DNA of 64,000 bases, from the NCBI GenBank assembly GCA_051294905.1, contig CM119372.1:6016001-6080000 (forward strand), read 5' to 3'. Source of the stretch: Botryllus schlosseri (Eukaryota). Shown here in pieces: positions 24,059-56,693 of the stretch; position 1 is the stretch's first letter, and each line of letters opens with the position of its first letter. The notes beneath the pieces are model-generated. The model was not told the origin of the DNA, searched no databases, and was given only the letters and a program-made list of their open reading frames with translations. The position numbers were made by a program, and so were the translations under genes.

Positions 24059-25779
24059 TCATTCATTATAGTCGTCACGTGCTACGGCCCAGTCGCTGTC
24101 ACGTTTTTCGTCCTTCTCTTCTGCGTATCCCGTATCTCCGTAGCATGATCTAAAATGAAAGGATATGGGATCAAATTGTAGAACTAATACTGCTTTAGAA
24201 TAACGACGAATAAGAAACTACATAGTACAAGTATGTCTAATATACTTACGGAGCTCTCTGTATTATTGGCATTGGTGGCATTGGCGGTACTGGTCCACCA
24301 GGAAATGGCATCGGTGGGGGCATCATTCTGAAACAAATATCAGTCTACTTTGTAATAACTAGTGGCGAGATAGCGCAGTGGTATAATCCGCGGCTGCAAC
24401 ACCAATGGGTGCGGGATCGAGTCCGACCGAGGTCGACTTCCGAACTCCGATACCTAAGTGTTGGAGGTTTACCTAGGCTCCTCCTCGCCACCTCATCTGC
24501 GTCAGCGGTGTCTTACAAAAACCTAGAGGTGGGCCGTGCTATAAGTCGGCAGTTACGGAAAATTAAGAGACATATCGGCCTTGTGTAAATGACCGTAGTT
24601 GTCGACAAACAGCATGGATACCCCAAAACAAACAAACCTTGTAATAGAGAAGAGGCACATAGCAATCTAGTATTTTTAGTGCGGACAAAGAGTACTAGTA
24701 TACTTACGGAAGTCTCTGTGTCATTGGCATTGGCGGCACTGGTGGAACTGGTGGAACTGGCGGCATTGGGGGCATTGGTCCACCAGGCAGTGGCATCGGT
24801 GGAACCAGCATACTGAAATAAGCGTTATCTTGCCTGGTTATAGCGAAGCACAAAGCAATCCAATATTTTTCGATAATAGAAATCATTACATTTAGTTCGG
24901 CAGATCTTACTCGGCCGAAGTGTAGATTTACTTTTACGCTATCAATTTACATATATAAACACTGATGAGCACTGTATGGTATAGCCACGCTTCTGACCAT
25001 TATTGTTAGGTTTGTCTATTATTTCTGTGGGTCAACACAACTTATCTAAGTCAGGGGGGGTAAACCTTTTTGCCGCATTTCGATAATTAATGTCGCCTAT
25101 ACGACCGCATTACAGGGCATATTCCTAATGAACTAACTGGAAGCCAAATAGACATGTTAACTGTCCATGTTGATTTTCGGGAAACTCCGGACTAATCTAA
25201 TTTTTCGTATCAGCTGACTATACGGGCCGAAATCGTGAGCGATCAATGGTCGCGCGAAGCGCAAAATTATTTTCAGATTCATGAATGAATTTCGTCTATT
25301 AGCAATAGTTTCCAATTTATCCGTTTTCAGCCAGTGTGATCAGATTCATTGGTAGAGTAGATGGAGGGATTGTTTGAAAAAAACTCAGCGCAGGTTATAA
25401 ATGTCAATGCATCCTCGAGTGGGCCAATTACTAATAGTCAATTTGATAATGTTCTTTCTGGGCCTCTCATCATGATTGTCGATACAGTGGAAAAATGTTG
25501 GAATCGCCCAAACGGCGGCCCTCGCATACTAATTGAATTACGCGTCGACGGCCGCACATTGCCTGCTTCGGCCGCAGACTGGCCACCCAGATCTAAGTGT
25601 AGCCTATGCAACTATACTCATACTCACGGTGCTGCTATTTTCATCGCCCCTCCTGCTACAGCCATTCCCTTCTTGGCAACGCTTTTCGCACCATTTTTAA
25701 GTTTTTTCTTCCAATTCGAATGCGCTGGACGCGTAATAACAACGATGAGAATGACAAATGTAACTAAACGCAGCTGCAT
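24059..25779 (-). CDS. Secreted prepropeptide: signal peptide + Lys-rich cecropin/styelin-like helix + Pro/Met-rich repeats + Gly + acidic tail (putative antimicrobial peptide precursor, 141 aa)
   Basis: Exons 25779-25628, 24812-24708, 24327-24250, 24149-24059; all introns GT-AG, phase 2. Translation: MQLRLVTFVILIVVITRPAHS-NWKKKLKNGAKSVAKKGMAVAGGAMKIAAP-MLVPPMPLPGGPMPPMPPVPPVPPVPPMPMTQRLP-MMPPPMPFPGGPVPPMPPMPIIQRAP-SCYG-DTGYAEEKDEKRDSDWAVARDDYNE*. The gene structure is seen in sequence; the function is inferred. Confidence 0.8.
24364..24637 (+). mobile_element. tRNA-derived SINE (full-length copy)
   Basis: A-box-like TAGCGCAGTGG, B-box-like GGGATCGAGTCC, and a (CAAA)n tail. Further copies or fragments at ~3993-4155(-), 5340-5460(-), 30820-31020(+), 43090-43360(-), 47570-47700(+), 60100-60300(+). 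Confidence 0.8.
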
Positions 25780-26455
25780 TTCGCAATCTTCTGGTATTAA
25801 CTGTAAATTAAGAATGCATGATAAAGGTTGGTCCGGTGGTATAAACGCGTTTTGCTTATATGGACTGTGTGAACTGTTTCCTCTTTAGCTACCAGATGTT
25901 CCAGTCGTAGAATTGATGCTGTGCATTGTCTTATTTTGCAGAGGTTATGTATTGAACATATTGCAATCAGATAGCCTATACTGTGAACAGACAATTATGC
26001 AATTGTCGCTTTCAGAGAAACGGAAAAAAACCATTCAACCAGTGATACAACCAAAGATATGACACGATCGCCTCTAAATATTTATACGACAATTTGTAAT
26101 GAATGCTGATTCTGGTATATCAGGCGTCCAGTTACTAAGAAAAGGCCTTGTTACGGATCAATGTACTCCGAAAAATCAAAGTTTGCCTAATTGCAGTGAA
26201 CCATTGGCCTCTTCCAGTTAATCGATGTCAATTGGCCGATGGTTTGATAGGCTTATTTCGAAGTGCTGAAGCATTGGTTGTCAACTTTTATTCCGTCGAA
26301 CTGCCCAAACTGTAAGCGTATTTTGAGAAGGTCGCGACGCGAGATTGTGGTATCCTGAGGCGTTTTAGCCCCTCCATAGTTTTGATTCGTTCATTGTGAT
26401 AGTATTTTCGTTCACTAAGTCACAGTGAACCAGAGACAACATAATTGCTAATAGC

Positions 26456-27576
26456 TAGGGCGATTTTTTTTACCTAAAAAACGGAATATTTTGACCTAAA
26501 AAATTTAAATTTTGACATTTTTTACCTCAAAAAACTTAATATTGACCAAATGTTGACCTAACGTATGCAAATTAGGAGTTTTCCCATATAATGTTAGAAT
26601 TGTACTACTTATCTTCATTTCTGGTTCAGTCCTTTCGAAGTAGTTTGGCCCAAAAAAAATATTGTGACTCAAAAACTGACGAATTTTTACATGAAAAAAC
26701 TTCATTTTAACGAAATCTGGCCCTATGAAGAATTCCTGTAATTACATCACGTATTATTAGCCAGCCGTCAGGATTACCGGACAACGACCTAGCATCGCCC
26801 TCGCCCTCCGCCACATGCCACCTCATTTTGTCGCTTGCGTCTTATATTCTCTGCATTACTTTTCATTCAGTGTGCAATGTGCAATTGTGCATGCCTCTTC
26901 TTTACTTCGCCAAGGCTAAGGTGGGTGTCTGATCTTAAAGGCTACTCCTAGTTGTTCCGACAACTTCCTATATTTTCATTGTATCGCAGTCTTGTGATGT
27001 TTTGAACTAATGAAAATATTAATAAAAATTGATTGATTGATTATGGTAGAAAAAATTAGTATTTGTTGTAGTACAACGTACGATACTATCCTACATTCTT
27101 GGGTAGAAAGTGTATGTCCTTACTAAGTAGCTTGTAAGAAATGGAGAAACTACGTTCTAGAGCAGCAGTTGTTGGCTGCGTACACTGCTGGGGACAAATT
27201 GTGTTGCTTCATTATTACAATGGTGTCTATATTACAATATTTCATCATGCGCTTCTTGATATAAGAACCATGCAATGCCCACGCAGTCTTGCTTCAGTTA
27301 AGATATTGCGGTACGTTGAATAATACCATGTCAACCTATTTGTTTCATTTGAATGTTTATGATTCACAATGAGCAGACAATGGGTCTACAACGGTAGGCC
27401 TATAAAGTAGAATACAAGCTGTAAAATATCAAATGACAAGCTCACCGACAGTGCACAGTCGACGATACAAACGACATGCAGGTTGCAAAGAATTTTTACT
27501 TTGGTAACAATTTTGACATTTCTGACCTAACACTACAATTTTGACTTTTTTGACATGACAAAAAAAAATCGCCCTG
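26456..27576 (-). mobile_element. Internally deleted hAT element retaining the end of the transposase dimerisation domain; contains a LINE 3' fragment (26770-27041)
   Basis: TAGGGCGATTTTTT...AAAAAATCGCCCTG termini with degenerate TSD CTAATAGC/TTAATAAC. Bases 27060-27190 match, on the minus strand, the QPTT..RSFS..GKLL..DR segment at 44940-45070. Confidence 0.7.
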
Positions 27577-27637
27577 TTAATAACATTTCGCATCTCACGA
27601 AATATATCATTCGTCGCTCCCAAACATTCACTGTGCA

Positions 27638-27932
27638 CTCTTAGCGAAAAGAGTATGTATTTCCACCTGTGTATCACCCCAATATGCGAGTGTGAATAAA
27701 CACCAATGGCACACGAAACCAGAACGTACCTCAGAATTATATTGCAGTTATAAATCCTACACCCCTACGTGATTATCATTTGGATTAAAATGTTGTGTTT
27801 GATTTATACCGTGGTGTGAGTCAGAGGTAAGTTCTGGTGTCGTGTACCACGGATGTATCTTCACACCCTTATATTACGAGTGGTACATGGGTGTGCACTG
27901 TGCAAGTGTGCATACACATTTTTTCGCTAGGA
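27638..27932. mobile_element. Small MITE-like inverted repeat
   Basis: CTCTTAGCGAAAA...TTTTCGCTAGGAG with partially complementary arms; a related fragment at ~3720-3790. Confidence 0.5.
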
Positions 27933-28024
27933 GCATGACATCATATATATGATCTATACATGTCATAAAGTTGTGTGTAAATTCCCCATATAAAAGGTAA
28001 CTGCGAAGGCATGATTAGAGATGA

Positions 28025-29050
28025 ATGTCAATTCAATTCATTTCAATTCATTGCTAACAATTTCATCATTTCAATATTCCACAAGACTGTGATACAATAA
28101 ACGATAGGAAGGTGTCGGATCGACTTGGAGTAGTCGTCGAAATCAGAAACCAACCGGGCCAATGCGATGTAAAAAGGAGGCATGCACACTGAATGATAAG
28201 TAAAAGAAGACGATATAAAAGGACAGGTGACAAAAATATGGCATGTGTTGGAAGGCGAGATCGATATGTCATGTCGTGACCCGGTAAACTAAAGGGATAA
28301 CTAGTATTGATTCAGTAGAAATTGTATTTCGACTTGTATGTGGACAATGGACATGCTCGATAATTATCAGATAGCCGGCGAGATAGTGTTACGAAAATCA
28401 GACCCGGCATATTTGATGGAGCGATGATCTTTTTTGTCTGCCATATGATAGTTGGACGCGCGTGTGTCGTACTTATGCAATTTTGATACCGAGGTAAAGA
28501 AGTCATTGAAGTTTTCGGAGCAGTGGCGTCAATGGAACTGATACAAAAAATTGGCAATTTCTAGTATCCGCGTATCTTTCATGTTTAGGACACAGAATCT
28601 TTTGAGCAGTGAGTTTCTGGAAACACACCCTGGTCCCTTCGGGGCCCTGACTATGATACGGAGGACCTGATGTTGTAGTTTTTGCAATGGCTTCAGTGCG
28701 CTAACACTGCTGGCAGCCTCCCTAAACCGTGATGACATATTGTAACTTAGATTGGAAGAATGATTTCAAGAATATCAGAATAACGACGCAGACTGGCAGT
28801 AGAACAGGCCACAGTTTCGTGATAATTTTGTTTCTTGCGACTGACTGTGGCTCTTCCAGGACACGTTCGAGTATAGCGGGTATAGCATTTCACATTTTAA
28901 GAGTTGGAAATAGGCGGACCAGCGAACAGTGTGGTATTCAATGAGGAAGATTCAAGAATATCATTATATAAAGAGGACCGGCTCAGGCACTAGGCCTTGG
29001 GCTATACCACAGGTAACCAGTTGAGGAGAGGACAAGATGTTGGAGATAGA
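28025..29050 (-). pseudogene. Decayed non-LTR retrotransposon (CR1/L2-group) ORF2 3' part and 3' UTR
   Basis: Minus-strand remnants 'VTCGIAQGLVPEPVLF' (GVPQGSVLGP-like), 'YNDILESSSLNTTLFA' (preceding the RT DD), 'FFQSKLQYVITV*GG' and 'LQKLQHQVLRII..LLKRFCVLNMKD', broken by stops and frameshifts. The ~270-nt 3' UTR recurs at 16600-16872 ((TGA)n tail), 26770-27041 ((GATT)n tail) and 44370-44830. Confidence 0.75.
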
Positions 29051-29376
29051 AACCATTGCTGGTGCCCAGTGAGGTAGCGTATAGGAAATAAGTATCTCTA
29101 TTCACGCTTTGGCACAGTACGTTGTTGAGCGTAATCAGTTCATAGCTGCATTTCTACGAAATATCGATCATGATTCATGGAAACTGGATCTTTTATTCCA
29201 TTGTTCGCGCTATTCCCGCTTGATAGAGCAGCCGTTGGATCACATAGCTTGTACTGAACATCAGCAATAACAATTACTGGCGAAGGTCATATATATAGCC
29301 TAATCTTGGTGTTTAAAGAAGATGCATATTGCATTGGTTGATAGCACAGTAGATTGAATAATAAACTTTTAACGAA

Positions 29377-30688
29377 ATGTCTCTTCGTTCGATCATCGTT
29401 ATTGCAGTGGTAGCGGTTTGTATTAGGGAAGGGGCATGCAGCTGGAGTCATTTTGTAGACTTTGCTAAAAAAGCCGCTACAGGTGCTGGAAAATTCGTCG
29501 TAAAACATCCGTGAGTATGTTCACGCAATTATTCCTCTCACGTTACAGAACATAAGAGATGTACGACTCACATAATAGCCTGTATTTCTATGTCTTTGTG
29601 AGTGACAACTCACAGATTGAAAGTCAATGATGTTGAGTAGGGGTCGAAGATCTGATTCGTTTAATGAGCCATATTGCCCCTCCATTGTGAATTTATGGAT
29701 CTTATGGAATCATATAACACTTTCGATCAGTTGTGACGTTGCTCGACATTCAATTCTTATGGTCACATAACGGTGATGTCGTGAAGAATTCGTGCTCAAC
29801 GAATTAAATTGAAATAGCGAAAGTATCGATAAATATATTACGAATATGTGTCTCGAAGAAGCGAGTGTTGGCTCAATTCTATAAATTATGCCACCGATAT
29901 TAAAGAGGGAAATGCAAATCACTGCGATATTTGTCAGCTAATGTAAAAATAATATATATACCATTTCACGAAATCTCCTCATAACCAAATCCCTCGGACT
30001 CAATTTACAGTCTTATATAAGTCTGGTGTAATCCTACTTTTCGTAACGTAGTGCATACGTTCTGATCAGCTCATAAGACTGTGGTAAGACAGAAATGTTT
30101 GAATAAAGAGTTCATCAGTGATCGAACACTACCCGTCCAACACACCACCTTACCGTGTACCGAATTGAGGGAAACTTTATAATTGCGAACTTGTCTACAT
30201 ACAGGGAGATACTCGCCACTGCGGCCATGCTCGACGAAGATTTGTTGCATTACATGCACGATTTAAAAGAAAAGGTTGGCAATTTGCTACATCTCACGAC
30301 ATCTTATAAATTAAAAATCATTTCAGTTTTCATCCTTAGAGTCTGTCTCATGAAATAAAGCTATTTTCATAAACACGGCCATATGGGCGCATCGGAACTA
30401 AAAAAAACTCACAAGTTTTAATTTTTACTTCAGGACCAAGCTGCCTATGACCAAACCATCGGGAGTTTGAGGACAGAGTTCGCCAGCATCATGAACGATG
30501 CTGCAGCAGACGACGCCATCAACGATTTTGAAGCCATCATATCTATGGGTAATTTCACACCGTTTTGTTGTTGCGCTGCATTTTGTGTAAGTAGCCTACT
30601 ATTAATCTTGCGTTCAGACGCAGGCAACGAAAGGGAGGAAGCGAGCGACGCACTTGTGTCACAGATGATGTCGCACTTGCTTAATTAA
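29377..30688 (+). CDS. Styelin-like antimicrobial peptide precursor, paralog A (129 aa)
   Basis: Exons 29377-29510, 30205-30274, 30434-30548, 30618-30688. Translation: MSLRSIIVIAVVAVCIREGAC-SWSHFVDFAKKAATGAGKFVVKHPEILATAAML-DEDLLHYMHDLKEKDQAAYDQTIGSLRTEFASIMNDAAADDAINDFEAIISMDAGNEREEASDALVSQMMSHLLN*. Exon sizes 134/70/115/71 mirror paralog B (134/76/115/71). Confidence 0.82.
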
Positions 30689-32249
30689 ACGGGCCTATAT
30701 CGTCAGCCGCATTGATATCAACGATGCTTCCGTCAACGAAAACCAGATCACGGCACACCTGGGTTTAGCATGTTTCATTCACATGTATGTTGCTGGCAAT
30801 AAAAATACAAGCGAACCATATACGACCGAGGTCGACTCCAGAATCCCTTTCCCGAGTATTGGAGGTTAATCTCGGCTCCTCCATGCCATCTAATCAGCTT
30901 AAGCGATGTTTTACAAAAGGCCCAAAACGAAAGTAGGCCGTGATACAAATCGACAGATCATAATAATCAATACCGGTGTGGTGTAAAATGACCATAGATG
31001 TCCAATACTAAACAACAACATGCGTTGATATATGGCACATATTCATTGCGCGCACTATACGAATAGTGCCTGTATAGGACACGCATGTCGCATAATCAGA
31101 TCACACGATCGCCGATGCACATGGGATATCCAGGGGTCGAAAGTAAAGGGGGCACACGTAACTTTTAGATCATAAACACTTTGACATCATATATTTTCGC
31201 TACGTCACGAAATCTCTGCGACGAATAATCGTAGCTCCAAGTTTGACTCCCACTATTTATCCAGGATATGGTACGGACAGATAATATCGGGGTCTGCATG
31301 GATTACCATACATTGTAATTATGACTTTCAACGTTTGAAACGAACTGAAGTACACTAATACGTTCCTTTGGTATGACTGGACCGGGTCTTGATTCCGCAA
31401 TCAATCTGTCGAGGGCCTTGGCACTCAAACACTATACTCAACTTCATGTTTCTATGCCACGTACAATTTAAGGATTCTTAACCAGGAAACACGAGAAAGA
31501 AGATGAAATTATAAGCTATTTAGCGTATTTGTATATAAAGAATATACGTGACAAGTAACTTTGGAATAGTTTGGTTTTGTGTTATGATCAGATATGGTCA
31601 AAGTTGTCAGTGTTCTACTGTAGCAGATTTGAGGCCGTGATTTTCAACTCAAATACATGTAGAAGTTGGTGGTGGTGGCCCCTTTAGAAATTTCAGGGTA
31701 TCGGTATACGTCGTGGGTTCTATCCCCGTCCGGATCAGACCAAAGACCAGATTAGTAACACCGGTATCCATGGCTTTTACGCTTGTCGCTCAGCATTATC
31801 GGGATTGCACGGAGAGGTAACCTAGACTTAAAAACATCACAAGCATATATATCCGCACCAGCGGCATATGCAAATCATACACCCATGGTATGTATATGCA
31901 GAGATCGTGTATATGTAGGCTATATCATGAGTAGCCTATACATCAAGGAAATGTACAACGTCCTATTCATTCGTATTCCTATTCCTATATCTTCACGACA
32001 AAAGCAAAATCACCACAGACAATACGAATAGGTGAGATGTTTGGAAATCTATTCAGTTCCAGGGCCTGCTTCGCTAAGCTGTCATAAGATTTTCACCAAT
32101 ATAAGTGGCGCAAACATATCCCCAACCTTCTTGCTATACCTTACAAAATCCAAAGTGTAAGGAGGAACTATAATCCAACCTAAAACCGGTAAGAAGAAAT
32201 GCAAGTGGTCTACAAACATAAACACTTGATTCAAGTAGTAGGCTACAAG

Positions 32250-34577
32250 CAGTGGCGGCTCGTGACAATATCGGGCGGTGGGGCAAGGGCTGCGAGCGAC
32301 TTTTATCAACATGACGTCACAATGGCGTTTTCCAACGTTAAAAAGTAACTTTAATATGATGGTCACATGAATTTCCCGACAACAGTGATTTTAACGTAGG
32401 TGCCGCGAGAGGTTTGCCGGTGAGCCGTGACTTGAAGTGTGGTAACAAATGTTTTATTCATTTTTTTTTAATCAAAGGATTATTTTACATAATGTACGTG
32501 AACTAAGAATCGTCCCTATGCCACGAATCAATTATCAGGTCATCCTTAGTAGCATGCGTTATGATTTCATAGTAGAGTTAGAGAATACGCAAATCGATAG
32601 GCCGTCCGAAAGTGTTTCGTACACGATCCTGGTGTGTTACGACCACTGAGCTGGTGGTTACGAGTTACGAACAGGTGATAGGCAACCAAAGCGGAGGTAC
32701 CCGGCGTACGATTGGATCAATGGACTGGACAATTTCTAGACCTTTAATTTTCGCTCTAAAGGCAACTGCGTAAACTAGCCTACGTACGGAGCAAAGATTC
32801 AATACGATTCATGTTCGCACTTGACTTGACCAGACTAATTCCAATGACTAGAACTCGAGAGATTGCGTAAGCCTAACTGCAAAGGTCAACGACTTCGGAC
32901 ACATACGCAATTGTTATCTCATAGATTGGGCCTGTCATATTGAATCCAGAACATCAATTTGAATGGTCTTTGAAGAACTAAGGACAGCAGCCTCGGAACT
33001 TCGGTCTCGGAACAACATAGTACATTTTGGCCTTGAAACTGGAGATTGTGACGCAACACATACGGCTTACTGTCTATAAGTCTGCTGCGAAATAGCCGTT
33101 GGAAAATATATTAATCAATAAAGACATGAATGAAAGCCGTAAACTTAGCATACTGTTACATGAAATCATCGAGAAGTAGCATTCGCAATCTCATAACCCA
33201 TTCCGGCATGGTACACTGTCAAAATCAATACAAACAGACGAACACCGAACTTTGAGTAAAATAGATCGAGGAATAGGCTGATCGAATGATCAGCTGTTAG
33301 CCGACATCGAAAATGAAATAGCTATCGCATTTGACAGGGGATTGTAAGCAAATGGTTTGAAGGCCACAATTTCACAGTGAAATGCACATTGGCGAACATA
33401 AAATTATGTGAATATTTGAATGCAAACCGAGAAACTTAGTTTGCTGTTTCATGCGATCATCGAGATATACCATTGGAAATATCATCACCGATCTCGTTAT
33501 GGAACGCAGACTAGATTAGCACAGACAGACACCGGCTTTTGCGTGAGATCCGCAATGATGTGGGTAGGCTAAGTATCAGATCAGCGCGCATCTCTACCAT
33601 ACTCGACCTCGAAAACGAAATAACTGCCTCAATCATTGAGCGTCAACTTTAAGACTTGGCACCGCGTTCGATACTAAAATCAAGACATACCGTGCAAAAG
33701 CTCATGACAGATCTAGGTATGGAACATCGTTAAAATCAATAGAGACCAATAACGGCTTTTGCGTAAATCTGTTAGCGATAAATGAAGAGTCAGCTCTCAC
33801 TCGACTTTGGAAACGAAATTACCACCCACATAGTTCAGTGACAAACTTAAAACTTGTTACAGCGGTCGATACTAACATTAAGACTTACTGTGCCAAATGT
33901 CATGACCGATCTCGGTATGGAACGTCAAAATCAATGGAGACCAATGCCGGCTTTTGAGTAAAATCTGTTTGCTGTACAATGTACATGATAGATCAGCACA
34001 CACTGAACTTCGGAAACGAAATTACTACCCTTATCTTTAAGTAGCAAGCCTGAAACTTGGAGCAGTGCTAAATACCACCTTCACGACATATCATACCAAG
34101 TTTCAAGAATTATCATGGTGCGAAACACCGTCAAAATCGACATATACCAGCAAAGGTCGACTCAACGCATATCATGGTAACCGAGTTCAGATATAGATAC
34201 GATTGTTACATCACACCTTAAGGGCGACAGGCATAGTTGCCCCACTTGCTCGGCCATTTTACGAATAAGAGAGAGTAAATCACCGTTTCTTTATTGTGCG
34301 CGGCTTTGAGAGAATAGATAGTGAAAGCTTGTTATGAGCGCTACCGGGGCAAGCCCCGGCTAGGCATTCACAAAGCGAAAACACAGAAGAGAATTCGATT
34401 TTCGCAGAGACTTCGCTATGTATGGGCATTTGTTAGCGAAAGCACAAGAATAATGCGGGTTTCGCTGTGATCTCGGTATATACTGATTGCTGTGCGTCTA
34501 TAAATGGTTAAATTGTTATTGAACAGAATTTTAGGTGGGGCAATGCCCCAGTTGCCCTATAGGACGAGCCGCCACTG
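32250..34577 (+). mobile_element. 2.3-kb non-autonomous hAT element, copy 2
   Basis: TIR CAGTGGCGGCTCGT; perfect TSD GCTACAAG; no differences from copy 1 seen by eye. Confidence 0.92.
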
Positions 34578-34766
34578 GCTACAAGTATAGGTAAAACATA
34601 TTTAAGAGTAAACATGCTCTGTTACTGAGTATCTCTGGCTATGATGCCATAGTGCAGCCTACAGATGTTGTTGTGTGTGGTGTTCATGATGGTCACGATC
34701 ATTTGATATCATAGGCCGATATTCTTTGTTATGATTCCATAGCTGCCGACTTGTAGCTATACTAGC

Positions 34767-35213
34767 TAGGGTTGCATTTAAAACAAAAATCAATTTAAAA
34801 TAAACATGTTTAAAACAATGCCCTAATTAAAAACATGTTTTTTATTGTTTTTTTGGTTTTTTCGAGCCATGACGTCACGAATATTAAATTGTGACGTAAT
34901 AGTGGATTGACATTGACAATTGAAAATATAGGGTAAATATAGCTCCTTTGGCGAAATATCTGTACTAAAAATGTTGAACCGACTATTTTGAGGGTTCCAA
35001 CCATCCCATGTCGATATACGTCAGCTATATCGGGTGGTAATTGTCCATAGGCTCATACAACATGTTTTTTGGAAAGTATTTGCACACTTATGGCATAATT
35101 TTACAACTTAAAAAAACGTAATTTTTTTAAATAAGGCCTTTGTTTAAAACACTGTTTAAAACATGTTTTAAGCAAAGTGTTTTAAAACATCGTTTGTTTT
35201 AAATGCAACCCTA
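34767..35213. mobile_element. ~440-bp hAT MITE (TAGGGTTGCATTTAAAACAAA TIR), inserted into a SINE
   Basis: Long perfect TIR. A second copy at 49843-50268. SINE pieces lie on both sides. Confidence 0.8.
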
Positions 35214-36156
35214 CTTGGAGCAGGGCCCACTTCGACACCGCCTGCGCGGATCAGATGGCGAGGAGGAGCCTACGGGGGGAACTAACACATGTCAGATATC
35301 ATTTTAGCATCATCATTAACGAAAAGCAGTTACTGGAATCCATTCGTGAATTGACCGACTAAATGATAGTTCAGAGTGTTGTAAATGTTACTGAACTTAC
35401 ACGATTGTTTTAGTTAGTTCATACATTCAACGCGTGAGTTATTAATACACTGGTTTTGATTCATAATATTACCAGTTCATTTACTACAATCGACCATTGT
35501 AGACAGAACGTCCGAGAAAATTTCATGAAATCTTTTGGGATACTAGCGCTGAAAAGGTTAAGAACTACTGCTCCAATCTATTTGTTTTCACTTTGATACC
35601 ATTTGGCTGCATATCAATGCTCGTTGCTCATGCTCACGCCGTTTTCGTTATTCCAGCTACAATTCAATTTCCCTCACAGCATCTTCCAGACTATAGTATA
35701 GTTGAGTAAGCATAACTCACCGTTACGCCAGCTTCAGTTATAGTTTTAATGGTAACTAACTGGGATATCTGCTACCATCGAAAGTCACCGTGACGCACGG
35801 TACCGCCCTTCTATATATACTCTGTCGGTAAACGGAGCCGCCTGAGCGAGGTCATGTGACTATGATACAGTGCAATGGCAGGTAAACCTGAAGGAACCAA
35901 AATAATATTTGGGTACCGTGGTGAAAATTTGTTCTTGGGCTGTAAAACTAGGACTAGTAAGTAGCCCATACTACTAACCTAAATCAAGGGTTCCCAACCT
36001 TTTTTACATCGTGAGCTCCTCTGGAAAGTTTATAAAAATCAATGCCCCCTATTTCTTCAACCCTTGTAAAAACGAAGGAAACATCATTTTAATTGGAGAA
36101 AAAAACAGTTGTGTACAGTTATAGTGGAGAGGATTTAGAGATGATAAATAAAATTA

Positions 36157-37080
36157 CAGTGTTGGGATCAGGTCACTACCTTCGAGTCACGAGTCATTTC
36201 GAGTCATTGCACATTTTGACTCGAGTCAAGTCAAGTCAATCGATTTTCAAAGGTGACTCGAGTCAAGTCAAGTCAGTCGTTTTTTGGAGATGACTCGAGT
36301 CAAGTCAAGTCACGAGTCAAGTCACAATTCAAGTCAAATTGAATTTTCGAAGTACGAGTGATGATTCAAAGTCATTACATTTTGCTAGCTGTGTGAAAGA
36401 CAGATTAATAAATCATTTATCTTAATCGAATAACGAATATCTAGTCAAATATAAATGCAAAACGACGGTGTATCCCTCACGTACACGTAGAACTGGTACG
36501 TGAGTAACTGTACAGCTACCTACTACAGTCAGTTCTTATCAGCCAAAATATAGGACCTAATAAGACGATTCGAGAAGTTACAACAAATTGATATGGTACA
36601 ATAGCCTACACTACCCATCTACATATCCGTGAGAATATAAACGCACGCAATATATTCGTTCGATTTAAATCATACAAGAGGATTGGTAAATGTGAGCACT
36701 GGGCAACGTAAGCATTGAGCCGTCTAAGAAACAGAGACACATTGCTATTTACATTAATTTTCGACTTTGCGGTCAACTTATTTGTGATCTAACAATAGAG
36801 GAACCTTGTAACGTACAATCACTGAATGACTGGTTGTTCTTACAAGTGACACCGGCGTATCTCGAACAATCCGAACATACACAACATGCAGTGATTTATT
36901 CGACACCGCTTACTTAATGACTTGAAATTGACTCGTAAATTTTGCTCCGAGTCACGAGTCAATGCACATTTTCGAAGCTCCGAGTCAAGTCAAGTCAAGT
37001 CATTTTTCCAAAGTGACTCGAGTCAAGTCAAGTCATACGAAAAAGTTGACTCGAGTCTGACTCGAGTCATCCCAACACTG
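36157..37080. mobile_element. hAT MITE with GACTCGAGTC / AAGTC subterminal repeats
   Basis: TIR CAGTGTTGGGAT. Inverted diverged copy at 45503-46457. A related GACTC-repeat remnant at ~1918-2385. Confidence 0.8.
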
Positions 37081-37592
37081 AATAAAAACAGAATTACTTT
37101 TCATGGCTTTCTTGAAAGCTAAACGATTGTAAATGTTCGCTGTGAACACGAACATTTGACGTCAGTTTACGTCACAATGCTAATTCCAAGGCACATCAGT
37201 TTTTGCCTCCTCTTTCTGTTCTCGTCTATATAAGATATTGCCAGAGTGATAGTCGTCGTAGTACATTTGGTATCAATCGAAACATGTCACTCATGACGAT
37301 GTGCAGTTGTGAACCTATTGCATATAGGCCGCGGCTAGCCCTACACCATATTGAATCGCAATACCTGAACACACACTGACACACAGACTGTATTTCTCGT
37401 AGTGTTGGTGTATCAATACAGACAAAAGCCCATCAGATCGCTTCCGGATGCGAAAAGTAAGTATCCATTTATTGTCATTGAAATATTCTGCATACAATTC
37501 AAGGCGCATAGGCCTGCACCAAATGTAGTCTGCATAGCATCCGAATAAGATTTTCTTGGTTACACCGCATATTATTGATAAGATTGGGATGG

Positions 37593-41713: not shown

Positions 41714-42851
41714 ATTGATAATTGCTACGGTTCATGCAACGAAGTTCGAACTGGATCAATGGATAACTCGTATAGAGTCGCTCATCTTATAGCTTTCGGG
41801 GTTTGTCAGGATTTCCGCTGGCTTCAATCCGAACAATAGTTCATAGATTGCGTTGGTTCTGTTCGTTCATTGTGAGATATACCGGAATGAATGCTCTAGC
41901 ATGTGCTGTACGTCGATTTCGAGAACATCTGCATTTCCTAGTAAGTCCTGATTTTAATCCAACTGGTGCTATCTCCCATTCGCAAACGAATCTAGCTAGC
42001 CACCAATATTCGATAAAGAAGATTATTATTTTTTACTTATCAAAAAAGTAAAATTTCATCAAAATTTTAGGGTTGGGCCAGAAAAATGTCAAAATTGTTT
42101 ACAAAGTAAAAAGTTTCATTCTAACTACATTTCGTTGGTGTCGTAGAGGATGCATTGTCGGGGTACTTATCAATTGACATATTACACCTTGTAGCCTACT
42201 GTATATAGGGCCTACTGTTACAGATGGCTCCTTATCTACTCATTGTGAATCACAAACCAACGAATGAAGCAAATAAGTTTACATGTCGTGTTGTGTCGCG
42301 TCAACACTTCTAAAATCGAGCGAAGATTTTACTAGCTCATGCCGATATCTCAAATCCGAATCTGAAACTTTTCTGTTTGGTCTGGTGGACATTGGTTCTT
42401 ATAGCACAGCGGTTCTCAACGTACGGATGGATCGCGAGATGTAAACAAAACGCAGATTTGGGTTGCGGTGTATACAACGTTGTCGGTGTGAAGCAACAGG
42501 TGTGTTACTAGCACTCCAGCAGCATATACTGAATTTCAATGCTGCCAACAAACAACTACTGCTGTTGAACGTTTTCTTTTCTATTCTTGTCAAGCTACTT
42601 CCTGAGGACTGACAGTTCCAATCAGAAATGCAGAAAAGTACTACAATTATGAAATAATGAGGAAAATGTCTAATTTAAATATTTGAGTGTAGAGTCTTGC
42701 CAGAAGGAAGTTTTTTAATGTCAAAAAACGTCAAAATTATCATTTGTTTAGTGCGAAATCTTCAGATTTCTAGATAATAGAATAATCGACTTTCATATTA
42801 GTTATTACACTTACGTTCGATTGCATGATGCCTATATGGTAAAGTCTAGTT

Positions 42852-44015
42852 CAGGGCCGGGCAACATATGGCCCGCGGGCCGGATCCGGCCCGCGACGGC
42901 ATTTTGTCCGGCCCGTGGGCAGCTTCCCGTCTTACATGATAATGTGGCCCGCTGCCGATTATAGTCTGCCGAGATTCCCCACTACTTGCTTACTACGTCA
43001 ACTTTTAGTGACTGTGTGTATATTCGAGCGTGAGAGAGTGGAGCTTACGGGTAAGTTCGTCGAAGCATTTACTATGTACTTAACCCCAATGTTGTTTGTG
43101 GTAATCATGGTGTTGGTCGACTGCAATGGCCATTTACACCAGGCCGTTATTTCTTATTTATGATTCCTTAACTGCTAACTGGTAGCATTGCACACGTCCA
43201 GGCTTTTGTGAGACACCACTTAATAGTTATGCCGATGAGATGGCAAGGAGGAGCCTAGATAAACCTCCAACACTTGGGTAGCAATTCCAGAGTCGGACTC
43301 GAACACACAACACATTGGGTTTTGTAGCCGTGGATTATACCACAGCACTATCCCGCCAGCTACTCAACCCTAATATCTTGGTAAATTTGGGATACCGGGC
43401 TTATCGAACAACTTAAAATCTTAATTTTTATGGATTGCACATTGTGTTGATTGATCAGAGAGAAGCAGACATGGCGGTGCATGTATGACAGTGGTTCTCA
43501 AGCTGGGGGGCGTGAAAGCATCTGAAGGGGGCGCGAAGTCACAGTTAACTGAAACTTTTTTCGCGCTTCGCACAATTTACCTCAAGCGCATGGTGTTTAC
43601 TCTATCTATTGTCCTAATTTCATATTTGAGAATTCTTACATCAATAGCCATTACGTTTAATGCCATCAAACTATCCGATGGGATGGCTAGCATTCTGATT
43701 CACCTCCTTAATATTTGTGATATCACGATAAGGGGCGCGCGGAATTTTTCACTATCAAAAAGGGGGGCGTGTTCAAAAATGTTTGAGAACCACATGACAA
43801 TGCTGTTCTCAAATCCACATTCTCTTCGTCGTTATCGGCGAGAAATTGCTTTGAAATAACATTGCTTCGTTAAAATACTATCATTAAATACGATTTATTC
43901 CATGTATAATGTATATGTGAATAAATGGGCAAATAATGTATTGATTCAGCGATCCGGCCCGCCAAGTACTTAATTTTCCTATATCCGGCCCGCCGACTGG
44001 AGAAGCACGCGGTCC
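42852..44015. mobile_element. Charlie-like hAT MITE carrying an internal SINE; diverged inverted relative of 47106-47972
   Basis: Begins CAGGGCCGGGCAACATATGGCCCGCGGGCCGGATCCGGCCCG. Colinear in reverse with 47106-47972, plus an extra insertion at 43488-43795. Confidence 0.7.
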
Positions 44016-46457: not shown

Positions 46458-46668
46458 GGAGAAGCATGGAATGATTTTATACCTTCTCAAAAGCAACTAT
46501 TATAGTTGTCGGCAAAATCATACCAGTCCAAGGAATCAAAGTTTCCCAGCCGTCGTTCACAAAATCATAAATATAAATTCAATGTGCACCATACAATGTC
46601 CGTGGGATGCTGTCAAGATATCATGGCATCTGACTTTGCAGTGTTCATTCTAAATAGCTTATCTATCC

Positions 46669-46941: not shown

Positions 46942-47105
46942 ATCTATCCGAAAGGTATAGCCTGCTGTGTACAGCCTGGGTAGTTTTGCTCGTGCAAAAC
47001 ATAATTTTCGCAAGGTTTGTTGCCACGTTCAAAAATAATGTCGTAATGACATCAACGTCCCAAACTGATTGCGAGTAGCTTTTGCTCTCTGCTTAGTGCT
47101 TATAG

Positions 47106-48495: not shown

Positions 48496-48949
48496 GGCGC
48501 TTCTTCGATATACCCCCGAGATCAAAATATATAAACGGAAAAATAAATTCTTTTTTCGTGTTCGGTACGAAATATTAGGGTTTGAAGTGGGTTAGGGTTA
48601 GGGTATCCCAATATTAGGGTTGTGGGTGAGAGATATTAAGGTTAGGGGATGACATATATTAGGGCTGTGTTAATGACGTATATTAGGGTTGGGCGTGAGG
48701 GATATTAGGGTTGGGGGTGATAGAATCCCCGAACTAACGTCCGAAACCACCCACTCACAACCCTAATATTACTCAACCACAAATCTAATGTCTCCCACCC
48801 CCAACCCTTATATTGGAATGCCCTAACCAATACCCTAACCCACTTCCAGCCCTAATATCCAGCACCCACAACTCCAATCCCAAGAGGAAAAAAGAATATA
48901 TTTTTCTGTTCATAAATTTTGATCTCGGGGGTATATCGAAGAAGCGCCG
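48496..48949. repeat. Inverted repeat with telomere-like TTAGGG/CCCTAA-rich arms
   Basis: GGCGCTTCTTCGATATACCCCCGAGATCAAAAT pairs perfectly with ATTTTGATCTCGGGGGTATATCGAAGAAGCGCC. The inner left arm has repeated ATATTAGGGT and GGGTTAGGGTTAGGG; the inner right arm has the complements. Confidence 0.8.
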
Positions 48950-50337: not shown

Positions 50338-51707
50338 CTATTCAAATTATATTCATGTATGCATAATGCCATCTGGGGAAGTATCTATATTTAGTGGTGG
50401 AAGGGGGTAATTTATTTCCAATGCAAAAAATACATTTTTTTTGAATAATTGACAAACGTGTACTGCATTCTCGTTGAAAGCACATACATGTATCTAATGA
50501 TTAAGTGATCAAAAAACGTTCAAATGAGAATTATGAATAGCGACATTTTATGTTGAGCGAAAAATATCGTGTGGTTCTCACAGGGAAAAAAACATTCTGC
50601 CGCAATCTTCTTTTGACTTCTTGCCGTTCGTCCAATGTAACGTCACTCCTCGTTTGCATCGGTTTTTATACGGAATTTGAAAACGGAAACACCTTCGGGC
50701 CCGCATAGTACGCAATTCACGCGGTCCAGAGGACTTCATTTATTTTTCATCCGCACCAGTGCGTACCATCCCACAGGTTCAAAAGCACTGATATGGGATA
50801 CGTGTCTTGATTCGCTGGAGTTGAACTGCCGGGAGTACAGCCACTGCACATTGCACCGCTGTATTCAAATTTATCATTCTGTTTCATTTCATCGATACGA
50901 ATGCTATATAATATAGAGTGGTAAACTGAGATTTGTCTCTTTAATACTATAAACAGCATTGTATCACAATCACATCTTGACGTAGCCTACTCCTTGTCAG
51001 TCGCTTAGTTGTTTCATTCATCTGCGTGATTTGAAGATATCTGCGTCCAACCTGGGAATGCAACAGATCAAACTGAGTTACGAGTATAGGGCTGCATGGG
51101 TAGGGTTGAGCTACTGAATGATGTGATTACAAGTCTAATGTCCAAGGACTGCGTATTCTGACGTCACAGCAGTACTAATGAGTAATGACTAGAAATGCTC
51201 GTATATATATTTTGCGGCCACAATGTTGCCAGTTGCATGTGGCTCAAAATAATTGCGTATTTCTGAGTCATGACTTTGCGCTTTGGGACCAATGTGAGGG
51301 TAACTTGACAGAAATGTCGTCCCATGAATATTCGCAATCTTGTGTTACATGCTTCCCGTGAAGAGATACGGCTACCCTGCTCAATGCCTGTTACGTCGGA
51401 TTTGGTGATGGGATTGTTGATAAAGTTATTTTCAATTCTCAGCTAGTTGCTGACGATTATCCCTGACGAGTGTCAGCCGTCAATATTAGGGCCATAATTT
51501 CTATATGAATTGAATACGTTATTCAATTATAATTAAAGTATTGAAAATGAATTCACATTTGATGATCGACTCGGATTATAATTCTAGATTCGCTGTCCCC
51601 ATTCCTATAATATCACCTCATTAAGTATGCCTATGGCTTTGTAAGTCAATTTGTATATGGTGTGTAAATCTGAGCCAAACTCCACCAATAACATGCCAAA
51701 TAATAAT

Positions 51708-54700
51708 TCATAACCAACGTCCGATGTCCAATAGCGCATTGAGGTCGCTAACGGCATCTTCTGCGTCGGTGTCTGCTACTTGATCTGACATTTTGCGAAT
51801 TAATTTTTCGACATAGTCATCGTACGATTCAGAGTCCTGCAATGAAAATTAATGTAAGTAAAACACTTTTGGGGCCACTATCTTTTAGATCTCTAATTCT
51901 CTATTAAGAAATCTCTATACACGATTCGATCCCTAGAAGACGCATTTATACTGTCCACTGAACACGCGATTTCACATGAACAATGAACATGACATAGAAT
52001 AGGCAGGGCGCAAAAGGCCTCAGCTACCGATAAGCACCCCGTCCCCCCATAAACATACATGCGTGCACTTTTTGGCCTTAAAACTGATGTAAACAAGACT
52101 TTAAATTAAATAGGGCAGAAATTCACGACAGGATTTCGCGACGAAAATTGTATCAGAACGGAACACAGGAGTGGAAGACGAGCTTCTGGTCCAAATATTC
52201 GTTCGGTATATCAGTATACAAGATGCTCTTAAATCTCATGAACTATACTTTGTAATATCGTAACCCAACGATAAAAAATCACTATATATTTCAGTGCGCT
52301 TTGCAGTGATTACCTTTTCCCTCAACTCTTTCAGCGCGTCGAAGAACTCTTGGTCTCCAAACATCGTTGCTGCTTTTACCAATGCTCTACACATAGTATA
52401 AAAGCCAGCATAAAAGTAAGACAATAATATAAACTGTAAGGATTTCAAACTGTGGGTGGGGTGCTTATCCAGTAGTAAGCGATCGACGCAATCGCTGATC
52501 AATCAATTGTATACGTAATTTGTGAATGGATTTAGAAACAAGCAGTGGCGGCTCGTGACAATATCGGGTGGTGGGGCAAGGGCTGCGAGCGACTTTTATC
52601 AACATGACGTCACAATGGCGTTTTCCAACGTAAAAAAGTAACTTTATGATGGTCACATGAATTTCCCGACAACAGTGATTTTAACGTAGGTGCCGCGAGA
52701 GGTTTGCCGGTGAGCCGTGACTTGAAGTGTGGTAACAAATGTTTTATTCATTTATTTTTAATCCAAGGATTATTTTACAAAATGTACGTGAACTAACAAT
52801 CGTCCCTATGCCACGAATCAAGTATCAGGTCATCCTTAGTAGCATGCGTTTTGATTTCATGGTAGAGTTATAGATTACGCAAATCGATAGACCCTAAAAT
52901 CCGACCGTCACCCCAAATTCGAAATCCGGATCCAGTCCGGCCAGGTAAAAAAACATTGAAATCCTGCTCCGGCTCCTGAACCGGACTGTGGCCATCTCTG
53001 GTTACGACCAGGTGATAATAGGCAACCAAAGCGGAGGCACCCGGCGTACGATTGGATCAATAGACTGGACAACTTCTAGACCTCTCATTTTTGCTCTAAA
53101 GGCAACTGCGTAAACTACGTACGGAATAAAGATTCGATACGATTCATGTTCGCACTTGACTTGACCTGACTAATTCCAATGACTAGAACTCGAGAGATTG
53201 CGTAAGCCTAACTGGAAAGGTCAACGAGTTCGGACACATACGCAATTGTTATCTCATAGATTGGGCCTGTCATATTGAATCCAGAACATCAATTTGAATG
53301 GTCTTTGAAGAACTAAGGACAGCAGCCTCGGAACTTCGGTCTCGGAACAACGTAGGACATTTTGGCCTTGAAACTGGAGACTGTGACACAACACATACGG
53401 CTTACTGTCTATAAGTCTGCTGCGAAATCGCCGTTGGAAAATATATTAATCAATAAATACATGAATAAAAGCCGTAACTTAGTATACTGTTACAAGAAAT
53501 CATCGAGAAGTAGCATACGCAATCTCATAACCCATTCCGGTATGGTACACTGTCAAAATCAATGCAAACAGACGAACACCTAACTTTGAGTAAAATAGAT
53601 CGAGGAATAGGCTGATCGAATGATCAGCTGTTAGCCGACATCGAAAATGAAATAGCTATCGCAATTGACAGGGGATTGTAAGCAAATGGTTTGAAGGCCA
53701 CAATTTCACAGTGAAATGGACATTGGCGAACATAAAATTATGTGAATATTTGAATGCAAACCGAGAATCTTGGTTAGCTGTTTCATGCGATCATCGAGAT
53801 ATACCATTGGAAATATCATCACCGATCTCGTTATGGAACGCAGACTATATAGATTAGCACAGACCGACACCGGCTTTTGCGTGAGATCCACAATGACATA
53901 GGTAGGCTAAGTATCAGATCAGCGCGCATCTCTACCATACTCGACCTCGAAAACCAAATAACTGCCTCAATCATTGAGTGTCAACTTTAAGACTTGGCAC
54001 CGTGTTCGATACTAAAGTCAAGACATACCGTGTGAAAGCTCATGACAGATCTAGGTATGGAACATCGTTAAAATCAATAGAGACAAATAACGGCTTTTGC
54101 GTAAATTTGTTGGCGATAAATGAAGAGTCAGCTCTTACTCGACTTTGGAAACGAAATTACCACCCACATAGTTCAGTGACAAACTTAAAACTTGTTACAG
54201 CGGTCGATACTAACACTTACCGTGCCAAATGTCATGACCGATCTCGGTATAGAACATCGTCAAAATCAATGGAGACCAATACCGGCTTTTGAGTAAAATC
54301 TGTTTGCTGTACTATGTACATGATAGATCAGCACACACTGAACTTCGGAAACGGAATTACTACCATTATCTTTAAGTAACAAGCCTGAAACTTGGAGCAG
54401 TGTTAAATACTACCTTCACGACATATCATACCAAGTTTCAAGAATTATCATGGTGCGAAACACTGTCAAAATCGACCTATTCCAGCAAAGGTCGACTCAA
54501 CGCATATTACGGTAACCGAGTTCAGATATAGATACGATTGTTACATCACACCTTAAGGGCGAGTAGGCATATTTGCCCCGGTTGCTCGGCCATTTTACGA
54601 ATAGGAGAGAGTAAATCACCGTTTCTTTATTGTGCGCGGCTTTGAGAGAATAGATAGTGGAAGCTTGTTATGAGCGCTACCGGGCAAGCCCCGGCTAGGC

Positions 54701-56693
54701 ATTCACAAAGCGAAAACACAGAAGAGAATTCGATTTTCGCAGAGACTTCGCTATGTATGGGCGTTTGCAAGCGAAAGCACAAGAAGAACGCGGGTTTCGC
54801 TGTGATCTCGGTATATATTGATTGCTGTGCGTCTATAAATGGTTAAATTGTTATTGAACAGAATTTTAGGTGGGGCAATGCCCCAGTTGCCCTATAGGAC
54901 GAGCCGCCACTGGAAACAAGCCATGTCATAATTTAGTTGTGGCTTTATCTCGTATAAGCATTAGGAATGAAAAAGTTCTTACGACATCACAAAAGCTGTT
55001 TCCTCTCGACCTTCGAAATATCAGTGTCGGATCGTTCTAACGTCAAAATAAACGTTTGGCCGTTAGACCGTCAGCGTCATTAGTTCGTAACTGTCACTTC
55101 ATCGGACGACTTTCTCGATTGAATGCTATGGCCATGGACATTTGTTTTGTCGTAAAACGAGCGAATGCATGGCTGGGGGCCTACAATAACTTCAGTTTGC
55201 ATTTGCATATATTTAAAATTTTTAATGATCAATTGCATCCATCGCATAAGACGGTATCTATATAATATTTAATTCGTTATCTGTTCATTTTTTGTGATTG
55301 GTTATTAGTAGGGCGATTTTTCTTTTGACATGTCGAAAAAATTCAAAATTAGGTCAAAATTGTAGTGTTAAGTCAAAAAATGTCAAAATTGTTTACAAAG
55401 TTAAAACTTTTTTGCAACCTGCATTTGCTTTGTATCGTAGATTTTGCGATGTCGGTGAACTTATCATTTGACGGCCCATTGTCTGCTCATTGTGAATCGT
55501 AAACATTCAAATGAAACAAATAGGTTGAAATGGTGTTATGCTGAAAGTACCGCAATATCCTAACTGAAGCAAGACTGCGTGGGCATTGTATGGTTCTTAT
55601 ATCAAGAAGCGCATGATGAAAAATTGTGATGTAGACACCATTGCCAGAATGAAGCAACACGGTGTGAATGTCCTTTCTCCATTCTTGGCAAGCTACTTAG
55701 TAAGGACAGACACTTTCTACCCGAGAATATAGGAAAGTATCTTTCGTTGTACTACAACAAATTCTAATTATTTCTACCATAATACGACATGTAGCTACTG
55801 GAATTCTTCATAGGGACAGATATCGTTAAAATAAAGTTTTTTCATGTAAAAATGTGTCAGTTTTTGAGTCAAAAAAGTTTTTTTAGGCCAAACTACTTCG
55901 CAGACAGTTCCAACCAGAAATGAAGAAAAGTAGTACAAATTTAACATTATGTGGGGGAAATACCTAATTTGCATACGATAGGTCAAAATTTGGTCAAAAT
56001 TAAGTTTTCAAGGTAAAAAAATATTAAAATTTTGATTTTTTCTATCAAAAGCTCCCGTAGTTTAGGACAAAAATATCCCCCTAGGCATCAGAACTGAAAA
56101 AGTTCTTATGACATCACAAAATCTGTTTCCTCTTGACCTTCGAAATATCAGTGTCAGATCGTTCTCGATTGGAGGCCATGGACACGTGTTCTTGCGTAAA
56201 ACGCGCGAATGCATGGCCGAGGCCTACAATAACATCAGTTTGCTTATATTCAAATGATCGAGTGCATCCCTCGTATTAGAATGTCTCTACATAATATTTA
56301 ATTCGTTATCTATTCATTTTTATGATTGGTTATCAGTATATTTTCACTGAAGACATTCGTTCTTCAAGAAAAAGACGATTTATATTTGCAATGGGCGGTT
56401 ATTAACTACTTTTATTTTACATATAAGATTAATTCACACCCATAAAAGGTATATAAATGCCGATTGGCGGTCGCGTGGAAATTTCAAGTATATAATTTAA
56501 AAGGGGCTAGAAGCTCTCTGTTCTACCACGTACTCACTCTATGCCAATATACTAAGTTTACTCACGGATGCTTCTGTACGAATTTTCCGGCCCTCTTCAC
56601 CATCTCGCCCAGTGTGCTGAGCAAAAATGCATTGCTACCTTGCGTCAAGAGAGCGACAACCGCTACGATAACAAATGTGACTTTGGAATTCAT
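51708..56693 (-). CDS. Styelin-like antimicrobial peptide precursor, paralog C (~109 aa; 3' end uncertain)
   Basis: Exons 56693-56566, 52386-52314, 51836-51708. Translation: MNSKVTFVIVAVVALLTQGSNA-FLLSTLGEMVKRAGKFVQKHPALVKAATMF-G-DQEFFDALKELREKDSESYDDYVEKLIRKMSDQVADTDAEDAVSDLNALLDIGRWL*. 'AGKFVQKH' and 'AATMF-G-D' resemble recalled styelin 'VGKFYYKH' and 'AATLL-G-D'. No convincing fourth exon was found. Confidence 0.78.
52543..54912 (+). mobile_element. 2.3-kb non-autonomous hAT element, copy 3 (diverged), in intron 1 of paralog C
   Basis: Same TIRs; perfect TSD GAAACAAG; scattered substitutions and a replaced segment at ~52890-53000. Confidence 0.92.
55309..56083 (+). mobile_element. Deleted hAT element (same family as 26456-27576) in intron 1 of paralog C
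   Basis: TAGGGCGATTTTT...AAAATATCCCCCTA; reverse-colinear with 26456-27576 but lacking the LINE insert. Confidence 0.72.

Follow-up and report, generated by a model that had tools for sequence, protein, structure and literature searches.

A candidate four-gene cluster for secreted prepropeptides of the ascidian antimicrobial type in Botryllus schlosseri

What do four small genes, lying close together in the genome of the ascidian Botryllus schlosseri, encode? Ascidians, the closest invertebrate relatives of vertebrates, depend on innate defence, and to our knowledge the ascidian peptide families described so far number only a handful, among them styelins, clavanins, botryllin, and Ci-MAM/Ci-PAP. 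The stretch analyzed here, referred to as the window, comprises 64,000 nucleotides of AT-rich eukaryotic DNA with a GC content of 0.36–0.44 (contig CM119372.1, positions 6,016,001 to 6,080,000 of the forward strand) from a 495-Mb assembly (GCA_051294905.1). An earlier note, made from the sequence alone, posited that positions 24,059–56,693 of the window hold a tandem cluster of styelin/cecropin-like antimicrobial peptide precursors. Our analysis established three of the four genes (G1–G3) as transcribed and left the fourth (G4) as a prediction. The reading that we favor, with a probability of roughly one half, is that they form a lineage-restricted cluster for secreted prepropeptides, each of which would combine a linear cationic α-helical antimicrobial peptide with an anionic pro-region, as described for other ascidians.

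The four genes were delineated by reading on from leader-bearing first exons, and they fall within 33 kb, bounded by the stop codon of G1 at 24059 and the start codon of G4 at 56693. Scanning the window for ATG-initiated frames that carry a hydrophobic leader yielded 11 rows; four of these end in a phase-2 donor reading CC|GT(A/G)AGT, and their ATGs are at 25779 (−), 29377 (+), 41713 (−), and 56693 (−). In a wider leader scan with a strong-donor filter, covering 264 kb (the window plus 100 kb per side), 13 rows were obtained, and the CC phase-2 donor occurred only in G1–G4 (4/13). The gene outlines drawn in the earlier note were recovered in full: all four genes are multi-exon, with a leader of about 21–22 amino acids (aa), an amphipathic stretch, and an acidic C-terminal part, and in all four a Pro codon split CC|GT in phase 2 closes exon 1. 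Its remark that the first exons are missing from the open reading frame list applies to G2 and G3 but not to G1 and G4, whose first exons are present in the 60-aa stop-to-stop list.

G1, G2, and G3 have four exons each, and G4 apparently has three. G1 extends on the minus strand from 25,779 to 24,059 and encodes 141 aa. Its exon 1 (25628–25779) contains the ATG, a 21-residue leader, and a 30-residue peptide with a net charge of +8, ending at CC|GTGAGT. Exon 2 (24708–24812) is Pro/Met-rich, with both flanking introns in phase 2 inside Pro codons, a feature common to all three G1 introns; exon 3 (24250–24327) is a second Pro/Met-rich exon with 62% identity to exon 2, and exon 4 (24059–24149) supplies an acidic, Tyr-containing end and a TGA stop. 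G2, on the plus strand from 29,377 to 30,688 (129 aa), begins with an exon (29377–29510) for a 22-residue leader and a 23-residue peptide (net +3, two His), which ends in Lys-His-Pro at CC|GTGAGT. It is followed by exon 2 (30205–30274), encoding a first acidic segment predicted to be helical, exon 3 (30434–30548), encoding the acidic segment best conserved in the G2–G4 family, and exon 4 (30618–30688), with the acidic end and a TAA stop. G3 occupies the minus strand from 41,713 to 37,594 (131 aa). Its exon 1 (41580–41713) encodes a 21-residue leader and a 24-residue peptide (net +2, two His), ending in Gln-His-Pro at CC|GTAAGT; exon 2 (41438–41513), with RNA joints on both sides, and exon 3 (38507–38621), also with RNA joints, align with the paralogues, and exon 4 (37594–37663) ends in a TAA stop. 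G4 is predicted on the minus strand from 56,693 to 51,706 (109 aa), with an exon 1 (56566–56693) for a 22-residue leader and a 21-residue peptide (net +3) ending in Lys-His-Pro at CC|GTGAGT. Its exon 2 (52314–52386), with splice sites taken from sequence only, follows a 4.2-kb intron containing a 2.3-kb repeat element, and its predicted exon 3 (51706–51836) continues to a TGA four codons beyond the point at which G2 and G3 are spliced to exon 4.

A search for runs containing a 7-kb stretch listed no RNA run; RNA reads from four runs with the same species label (X1, X6, X9, and X10) were mapped to positions 24000–43999, and G4 lies outside that stretch; joint counts refer to the 15 joints listed among 61. 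In G3, all joints are of the GT..AG type on the minus strand. One X1 contig and 68 X6 reads cross intron 1 (joint 41513/41580). Intron 2 (38620/41437, cut +1) is crossed by 64 X6 reads and five X10 reads, and intron 3 (37663/38507), which had been overlooked when predicting from sequence, by 13 X6 reads and eight X10 reads. In G2, intron 1 (29510/30205), intron 2 (30272/30432, cut +2), and intron 3 (30547/30617) are each spanned by one X1 contig, the last also by six X6 reads. For G1, 10 X6 reads and one X1 contig cross intron 2 (24327/24708), and intron 1 is absent among the 15 joints. The mapping to predicted junctions that had been proposed as a check was thereby borne out for all three introns of both G2 and G3, as well as for intron 2 of G1. 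Since GT..AG RNA joints lie at the predicted exon borders, G1–G3 are real, spliced genes.

TATA boxes precede the start codons of these three genes: TATAAG at 25855–25860 in G1 (−81), TATATATA at 29290–29297 in G2 (−87), and TATAAG at 41786–41791 in G3 (−78 from the ATG). In G4, no TATA box was found at the −78 to −87 position held by the other three. The G3 promoter was placed at 41760–41791 on the minus strand, with the likely 5′ end of the transcript at 41760, because 45 X6 reads have a loose end there that is adapter-like and presumably corresponds to a template-switch adapter. This suggests that the G3 transcript starts 47 nt before the ATG and 31 nt after TATAAG. The upstream regions of G1–G4 contain no 8-mer common to at least three of the four, and a simple pattern search detected no kappa-B-like site in them. 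Toward the 3′ end of G3, the joint between exons 3 and 4 has about one-fifth of the X6 reads of the other two joints (13 versus 64 and 68), and the sequence of intron 3 (38320–38506) offers a stop seven codons in and an AATAAA at 38320–38325. Judging from the joint counts, the stop, and the AATAAA, a three-exon form of G3, ending where G4 ends, may be common.

The first exons of the four genes follow a common plan. All leaders are hydrophobic, 21–22 residues long, with small residues at −3/−1, and the predicted cleavage site follows from the small-residue rule at these positions. The stretches after the leader comprise 30, 23, 24, and 21 residues in G1, G2, G3, and G4, with net charges of +8, +3, +2, and +3, respectively, and 0–2 His. 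Their helical hydrophobic moments are 0.38–0.51, values equalled or exceeded by fractions of 0.0102, 0.0030, 0.0028, and 0.0056 (same order) of 5000 shuffles of the same residues. AlphaFold modeled the G3 exon-1 product, with a three-sequence alignment, as a single helix spanning residues 4–43 at a mean predicted local distance difference test (pLDDT) score of 69.3. The G1 exon-1 product was modeled as two helices (residues 3–16 and 19–45, mean pLDDT 70.4) with a break at the predicted cleavage region; the helix pLDDT in the exon-1 models is about 64–72, a moderate confidence. The G1 peptide has Trp at position 2 and no Phe; its first half is amphipathic and strongly basic, with a moment of 0.49 in the best 18 residues, and its second half is rich in Ala, Gly, Val, and Met. 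G2 and G4 share the exon-1 end Gly-Lys-Phe-Val...Lys-His-Pro.

The C-terminal parts have net charges of −4 in G1, −15 in G2, −10 in G3, and −9 in G4, the last exon of G1 alone reaching about −6. In G2, G3, and G4, these tails are acidic and proline-free over 84, 86, and 66 residues, respectively. Comparisons by tblastn among G2–G4 gave E values of 3e-9 to 5e-3 in exons 2 and 3, BLASTP aligned the exon-1 products of G2 and G4 at 34% identity, and identity among the three is 20–50% in every part. G2–G4 are paralogues in every exon and form a local expansion. G1 shares only the exon-1 design with them, continues with the two Pro/Met-rich exons, and closes with the acidic end; hhalign matched its exon 1 to the G2–G4 exon-1 profile with a probability of 36%, mostly in the leader. 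The idea of a tandem expansion therefore holds for G2–G4 and not for G1 with its different Pro/Met-rich body, and the cluster consists of three paralogues and one look-alike, G1 being no paralogue beyond exon 1. The donor that ends exon 3 in G2 and G3 is missing from G4, and no candidate for its exon 4 was found in 5.7 kb downstream. A complex prediction of the G3 peptide with three acidic exon products as separate chains scored 0.07 against a mark of 0.34, all chains but one being shorter than 30 residues, unlike those of the calibration.

The antimicrobial-precursor reading is considered the best because this build matches the printed descriptions of Ciona precursors and of botryllin. The Ciona report describes precursors with a signal, an amphipathic region of cationic character, and a helical pro-region of anionic character, in that order, with acidic residues and no basic processing motif at the boundary (PMC7387483). 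Seven synthetic peptides with net charges of +4 to +12 are presented there, five of which were found active, and Ci-MAM-A and Ci-PAP-A are cited as active already (PMC7387483). In our genes, a signal (its cleavage being predicted) and a cationic amphipathic helix are found in four of four cases together with an acidic C-terminus; the anionic helical pro-region was judged by charge and the absence of proline in G2–G4, and more loosely in G1. The Ciona description suits G2–G4, and G1 more loosely. The likeness to Ci-MAM-A, Ci-PAP-A, and KH.S908.1 extends to the order of parts, a signal of 21–23 residues, the occurrence of several diverged members, and a boundary with acidic residues and without a basic processing motif. 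By eye only, the middle of the G1 peptide, rich in Ala, Lys, Gly, and Val with a Gly-Met-Ala core, resembles KH.S908.1. The differences are also evident. No sequence homology to the Ciona precursors is detectable, the G2–G4 peptides carry +2 to +3 versus the +4 to +12 given for Ciona, and the acidic part spans 66–86 residues over two or three exons versus roughly 20–35 residues in the Ciona text; in G1, some 60 Pro/Met-rich residues are inserted. Peptide activity and hemocyte expression have been demonstrated for the Ciona peptides.

The relation to styelins and botryllin, which likewise come from styelid ascidians, is one of arrangement. The botryllin precursor comprises 158 residues, of which 23 form the signal and 37 the peptide (charge +11), followed by a long remainder, and botryllin shares a KHK motif with styelins (PMC9966394). 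Styelins are reported as mature peptides of 31–32 residues that are Phe-rich, C-terminally amidated, and hemolytic (PMC10608444). Our genes likewise have a signal, a helical cationic peptide, and a C-terminal remainder, and the long remainder of botryllin provides a precedent for the long tails. The Lys-His-Pro of G2 and G4 recalls the Lys-His-Lys motif. However, KHK itself is absent (the exon-1 end reads Lys-His-Pro in G2 and G4 and Gln-His-Pro in G3, with neither in G1), the peptides are 21–24 residues long (30 in G1) versus 31–32 in styelins and 37 in botryllin, and their charge is far below +11 except in G1. The earlier scheme of signal, cationic peptide, Gly, and anionic extension survives in the order of its parts but not in the Gly, which does not precede the acidic part, so that the amidation signal is missing. 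Judged by the printed descriptions, the four genes thus lack the marks of styelins.

Likeness to cecropins is similarly confined. In the cecropin design, Trp occupies position 2, and a basic first half leads into a second half rich in Ala, Gly, and Val; cecropins are not known to carry a long acidic tail, and they differ in gene structure. All four products resemble cecropins, moricins, and pleurocidins in placing an amphipathic basic helix directly behind the leader, and G1 shares the cecropin features of Trp at position 2 and of the two halves. On the other side, none of the four exon-1 products matched the cecropin model PF00272, even at E values as high as 10, and G1–G4 have acidic tails. 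Neither the missing styelin marks (KHK, the 31–32-residue length, and amidation) nor the lack of significant likeness to cecropin lends support to a styelin or cecropin family assignment. Exon 1 resembles an antimicrobial prepropeptide in design, and the comparisons do not establish descent from any such family.

Diverged paralogues in clusters are usual for antimicrobial-peptide genes. Independent look-alikes, all of them below threshold, also speak for the antimicrobial-precursor reading. Among 24,736 Pfam models, the best match of G3 exon 1 is Pleurocidin PF08107 (E 0.044, 14 bits, below the cut-off of 22), and that of G4 exon 1 is Moricin PF06451 (E 0.064, 13.5 bits, below the cut-off of 27.6). 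In the language-model comparison, insect cecropins are the named clusters nearest to exon 1 of G1 (0.86) and G2 (0.83), followed by dermaseptin and moricin. In the mechanism that we propose, exon 1 would provide a signal peptide, which directs secretion, and then a 21–30-residue amphipathic cationic helix as the putative active peptide. The later exons would provide an acidic pro-region, helical and proline-free in G2–G4 and composed in G1 of the Pro/Met-rich spacer and the acidic end. This region may mask the helix, keeping the peptide harmless and soluble in the presumed producing cell type, until a cut close to the Pro at the end of exon 1 removes it. Once free, the helix would lie on microbial membranes and disrupt them. 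The His residues of the G2–G4 peptides could perhaps strengthen this action at acid pH, as is reported of clavanins (PMC2866484).

Several findings weigh against the antimicrobial-precursor reading. No segment reaches a curated cut-off in Pfam, and neither Pfam nor the PDB gave significant homology to an antimicrobial family. In the language-model comparison, scores below 0.9 count as leads only, since one-third of shuffled proteins reach 0.8. At the boundary between head and tail, neither a dibasic site nor a Gly amidation signal occurs in any gene, dibasic pairs being located only inside the G2 and G4 peptides. The G2–G4 peptides are weakly cationic (+2 to +3) whereas their tails have net charges of −9 to −15, so that the secreted protein would be strongly acidic, and the tail charge exceeds the need of simple neutralization. 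Genes of this kind usually show a conserved leader and a variable peptide; this pattern was not seen in the G2–G4 comparison, in which identical positions number 5–10 of 22 in the leader, 6–10 of 24 in the peptide, and 9–15 of 38 in the tail. In addition, X9 contributed no reads on G3, and many G3 transcripts may retain intron 3 and stop seven codons further on.

Part of this evidence would suit proteins that act whole. G2–G4 would then be small secreted acidic all-helical proteins with a role in matrix, tunic, mucus, ion binding, or transport as carriers, and the first helix would be one element of the folded protein or would serve to anchor it to a lipid or surface. The secreted form, with a net charge of about −6 to −12, has a tail of 66–86 residues versus a weakly cationic head of 21–24, the boundary shows no recognizable processing site, and exons 2 and 3 are conserved at least as well as the peptide. 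We nevertheless regard this explanation as somewhat unlikely, while a serious contender. Taken as isolated helices, the heads of G1–G4 each show significant amphipathicity, the adjoining G1 pairs a like first exon (with the +8 peptide) with an unrelated body, and the Pfam and PDB searches returned no match to a known helical protein family; active Ciona peptides also come from precursors without basic processing motifs (PMC7387483). The general prepropeptide build, in which a leader and a short peptide are followed by a discarded acidic part, would equally accommodate other bioactive peptides, either signals or toxins against predators or competitors, and a lineage-restricted clustered family is in keeping with them. 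That the genes encode such peptides seems improbable to us, given a peptide without flanking dibasic sites and without an amidation signal. An amphipathic cationic helix is, moreover, typical of membrane-active peptides, for which hemolysis or cytotoxicity would be a side of the same mechanism; styelins are reported to be hemolytic (PMC10608444).

It is also conceivable, though we lean against it, that only some of the four genes work and that G4 especially is a decaying copy. The missing TATA box, an intron 1 enlarged to 4.2 kb by repeat insertions, and the loss of the exon-3 donor with no exon-4 candidate are what decay would leave behind. Against decay, G4 retains three exons with an open frame and intact splice signals and has kept the conserved Gly-Lys-Phe-Val...Lys-His-Pro end of exon 1, as in G2; an intron-3-retaining G3 transcript would end at the same point, so the three-exon form may be normal. 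The small size of the four frames is the sole feature that would suit chance open frames rather than genes, and this account has practically no likelihood left. Spliced GT..AG reads at predicted borders in three of the four genes refute it for G1–G3, and the paralogy over four exons speaks against it as well.

If the peptides of the favored antimicrobial-precursor reading are active, they would add a family beyond the reach of homology searches and four helical peptides adapted to salt water. If they are not released, the locus would simply hold an orphan family whose members are small, acidic, and secreted. It also offers a compact setting for studying gene birth, with a common first-exon design, a Pro-codon intron phase, repeats separating the copies, and possible decay of one of them. 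A more speculative proposal, which we rate as rather unlikely, treats exon 1 as a portable cassette joined within 33 kb to two unrelated bodies (acidic helical and Pro/Met-rich repeat), such that defence peptides would diversify by exon shuffling besides point mutation; the acidic body may then act alone after cleavage.

Searches for relatives used single-exon queries of 38–45 residues, which makes them weak searches. In a word-indexed protein library, the 45-aa G3 exon 3 gave one candidate, which was scored at 96% identity; this entry, P0001, is a 105-aa frame on a 941-base contig. Because of the 96% identity and because the frame is a genomic read-through, P0001 is attributed to the same or a sister organism. 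Exon-1 queries against this library retrieved no relative among 53 candidates for G3 and 29 for G4. An exon-3 profile compared by HMMER with 1.84 billion representatives gave three matches at E ≤ 0.001, one of them P0001. The other two were judged compositional: they are repeat-rich and aligned in seven to eight short stretches, one with a C-type lectin domain. Sequence searches of the PDB with three peptides and two profiles found nothing meaningful (best E 0.22–0.43); a stretch of IMP dehydrogenase resembling the G3 peptide, at E 0.28, is among these. Exon-level protein searches of the 495-Mb genome returned only the queries and, once, G2, a search insensitive enough to miss G4. A 29-place degenerate pattern of the exon-1 end detected only G2 and G4 in the same genome, with none for the reversed control, and the flanks within 100 kb on either side of the window contain no further copy. 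A literature search by keyword retrieved no paper on such a locus. Since no database relative was found in two protein libraries or the PDB, and none above threshold in Pfam, the peptides of G1–G4 are probably undescribed, as had been suspected.

The RNA data also reveal sequence variation. When the X1 contigs are compared with the assembly over G2 (29372–30712), 12 coding positions, about 3% of the total, are found to differ, and the contigs carry a 2-base deletion in the 3′ untranslated region. The coding differences fall in 11 codons, with six amino-acid changes and five silent ones, too few for a selection test; one of them, an Asp-to-Asn variant within the peptide, would raise its charge. 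These differences reflect either high polymorphism or a different population. In G1 exon 4, a Trp-to-Leu variant at position 24090 was present in 11 of 11 X6 reads.

Repeats are interspersed with the genes. A 2.3-kb repeat occurs as two inverted copies of 100% identity, at 19983–22310 and 32250–34577, which bracket G1 and G2 with 9.9 kb between them. A third copy at 52645–54920, with 96–97% identity, lies inside G4 intron 1, and the repeat is heavily present in RNA contigs. An inversion between the copies is possible, because flipping the bracketed segment puts G2 in the orientation of G3 and G4; an assembly artefact is also possible. Within G1 intron 2, a short interspersed repeat at 24362–24563 is covered very deeply by every RNA run (the X1 word depth exceeds 10,000); more than 90 X10 reads have loose ends at its borders, and a joint connects it with 43151 on the opposite strand. 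This repeat probably represents a SINE-like (short interspersed nuclear element) sequence; no tRNA was detected in the window by ARAGORN or Rfam. G3 intron 2 contains short inverted-repeat elements rich in the GGTTCACG word, at 40290–40420 and 41200–41290, which look like miniature transposon copies; many RNA loose ends fall at 41289.

Between G2 and G3, a 42-base segment at 31735–31776 is covered by up to about 190 X6 reads that continue into unlike sequence on both sides, one flank resembling the 3′ part of a tRNA. The segment is a fragment of an abundant transcript or of a repeat from elsewhere in the genome. At 48592–48724, TTAGGG-like units occur in an imperfect tandem array (period 22), which constitutes an interstitial telomere-like repeat. 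Beyond the right end of the window, at 14 kb and 74 kb (L016 at about 4150 and L022 at about 3820), there are two near-identical copies of a second small secreted-type first exon, each with a hydrophobic leader, a Cys-containing stretch, and a phase-1 GTAAGT donor. By these features, they appear to represent a second duplicated secreted-protein gene near the cluster.

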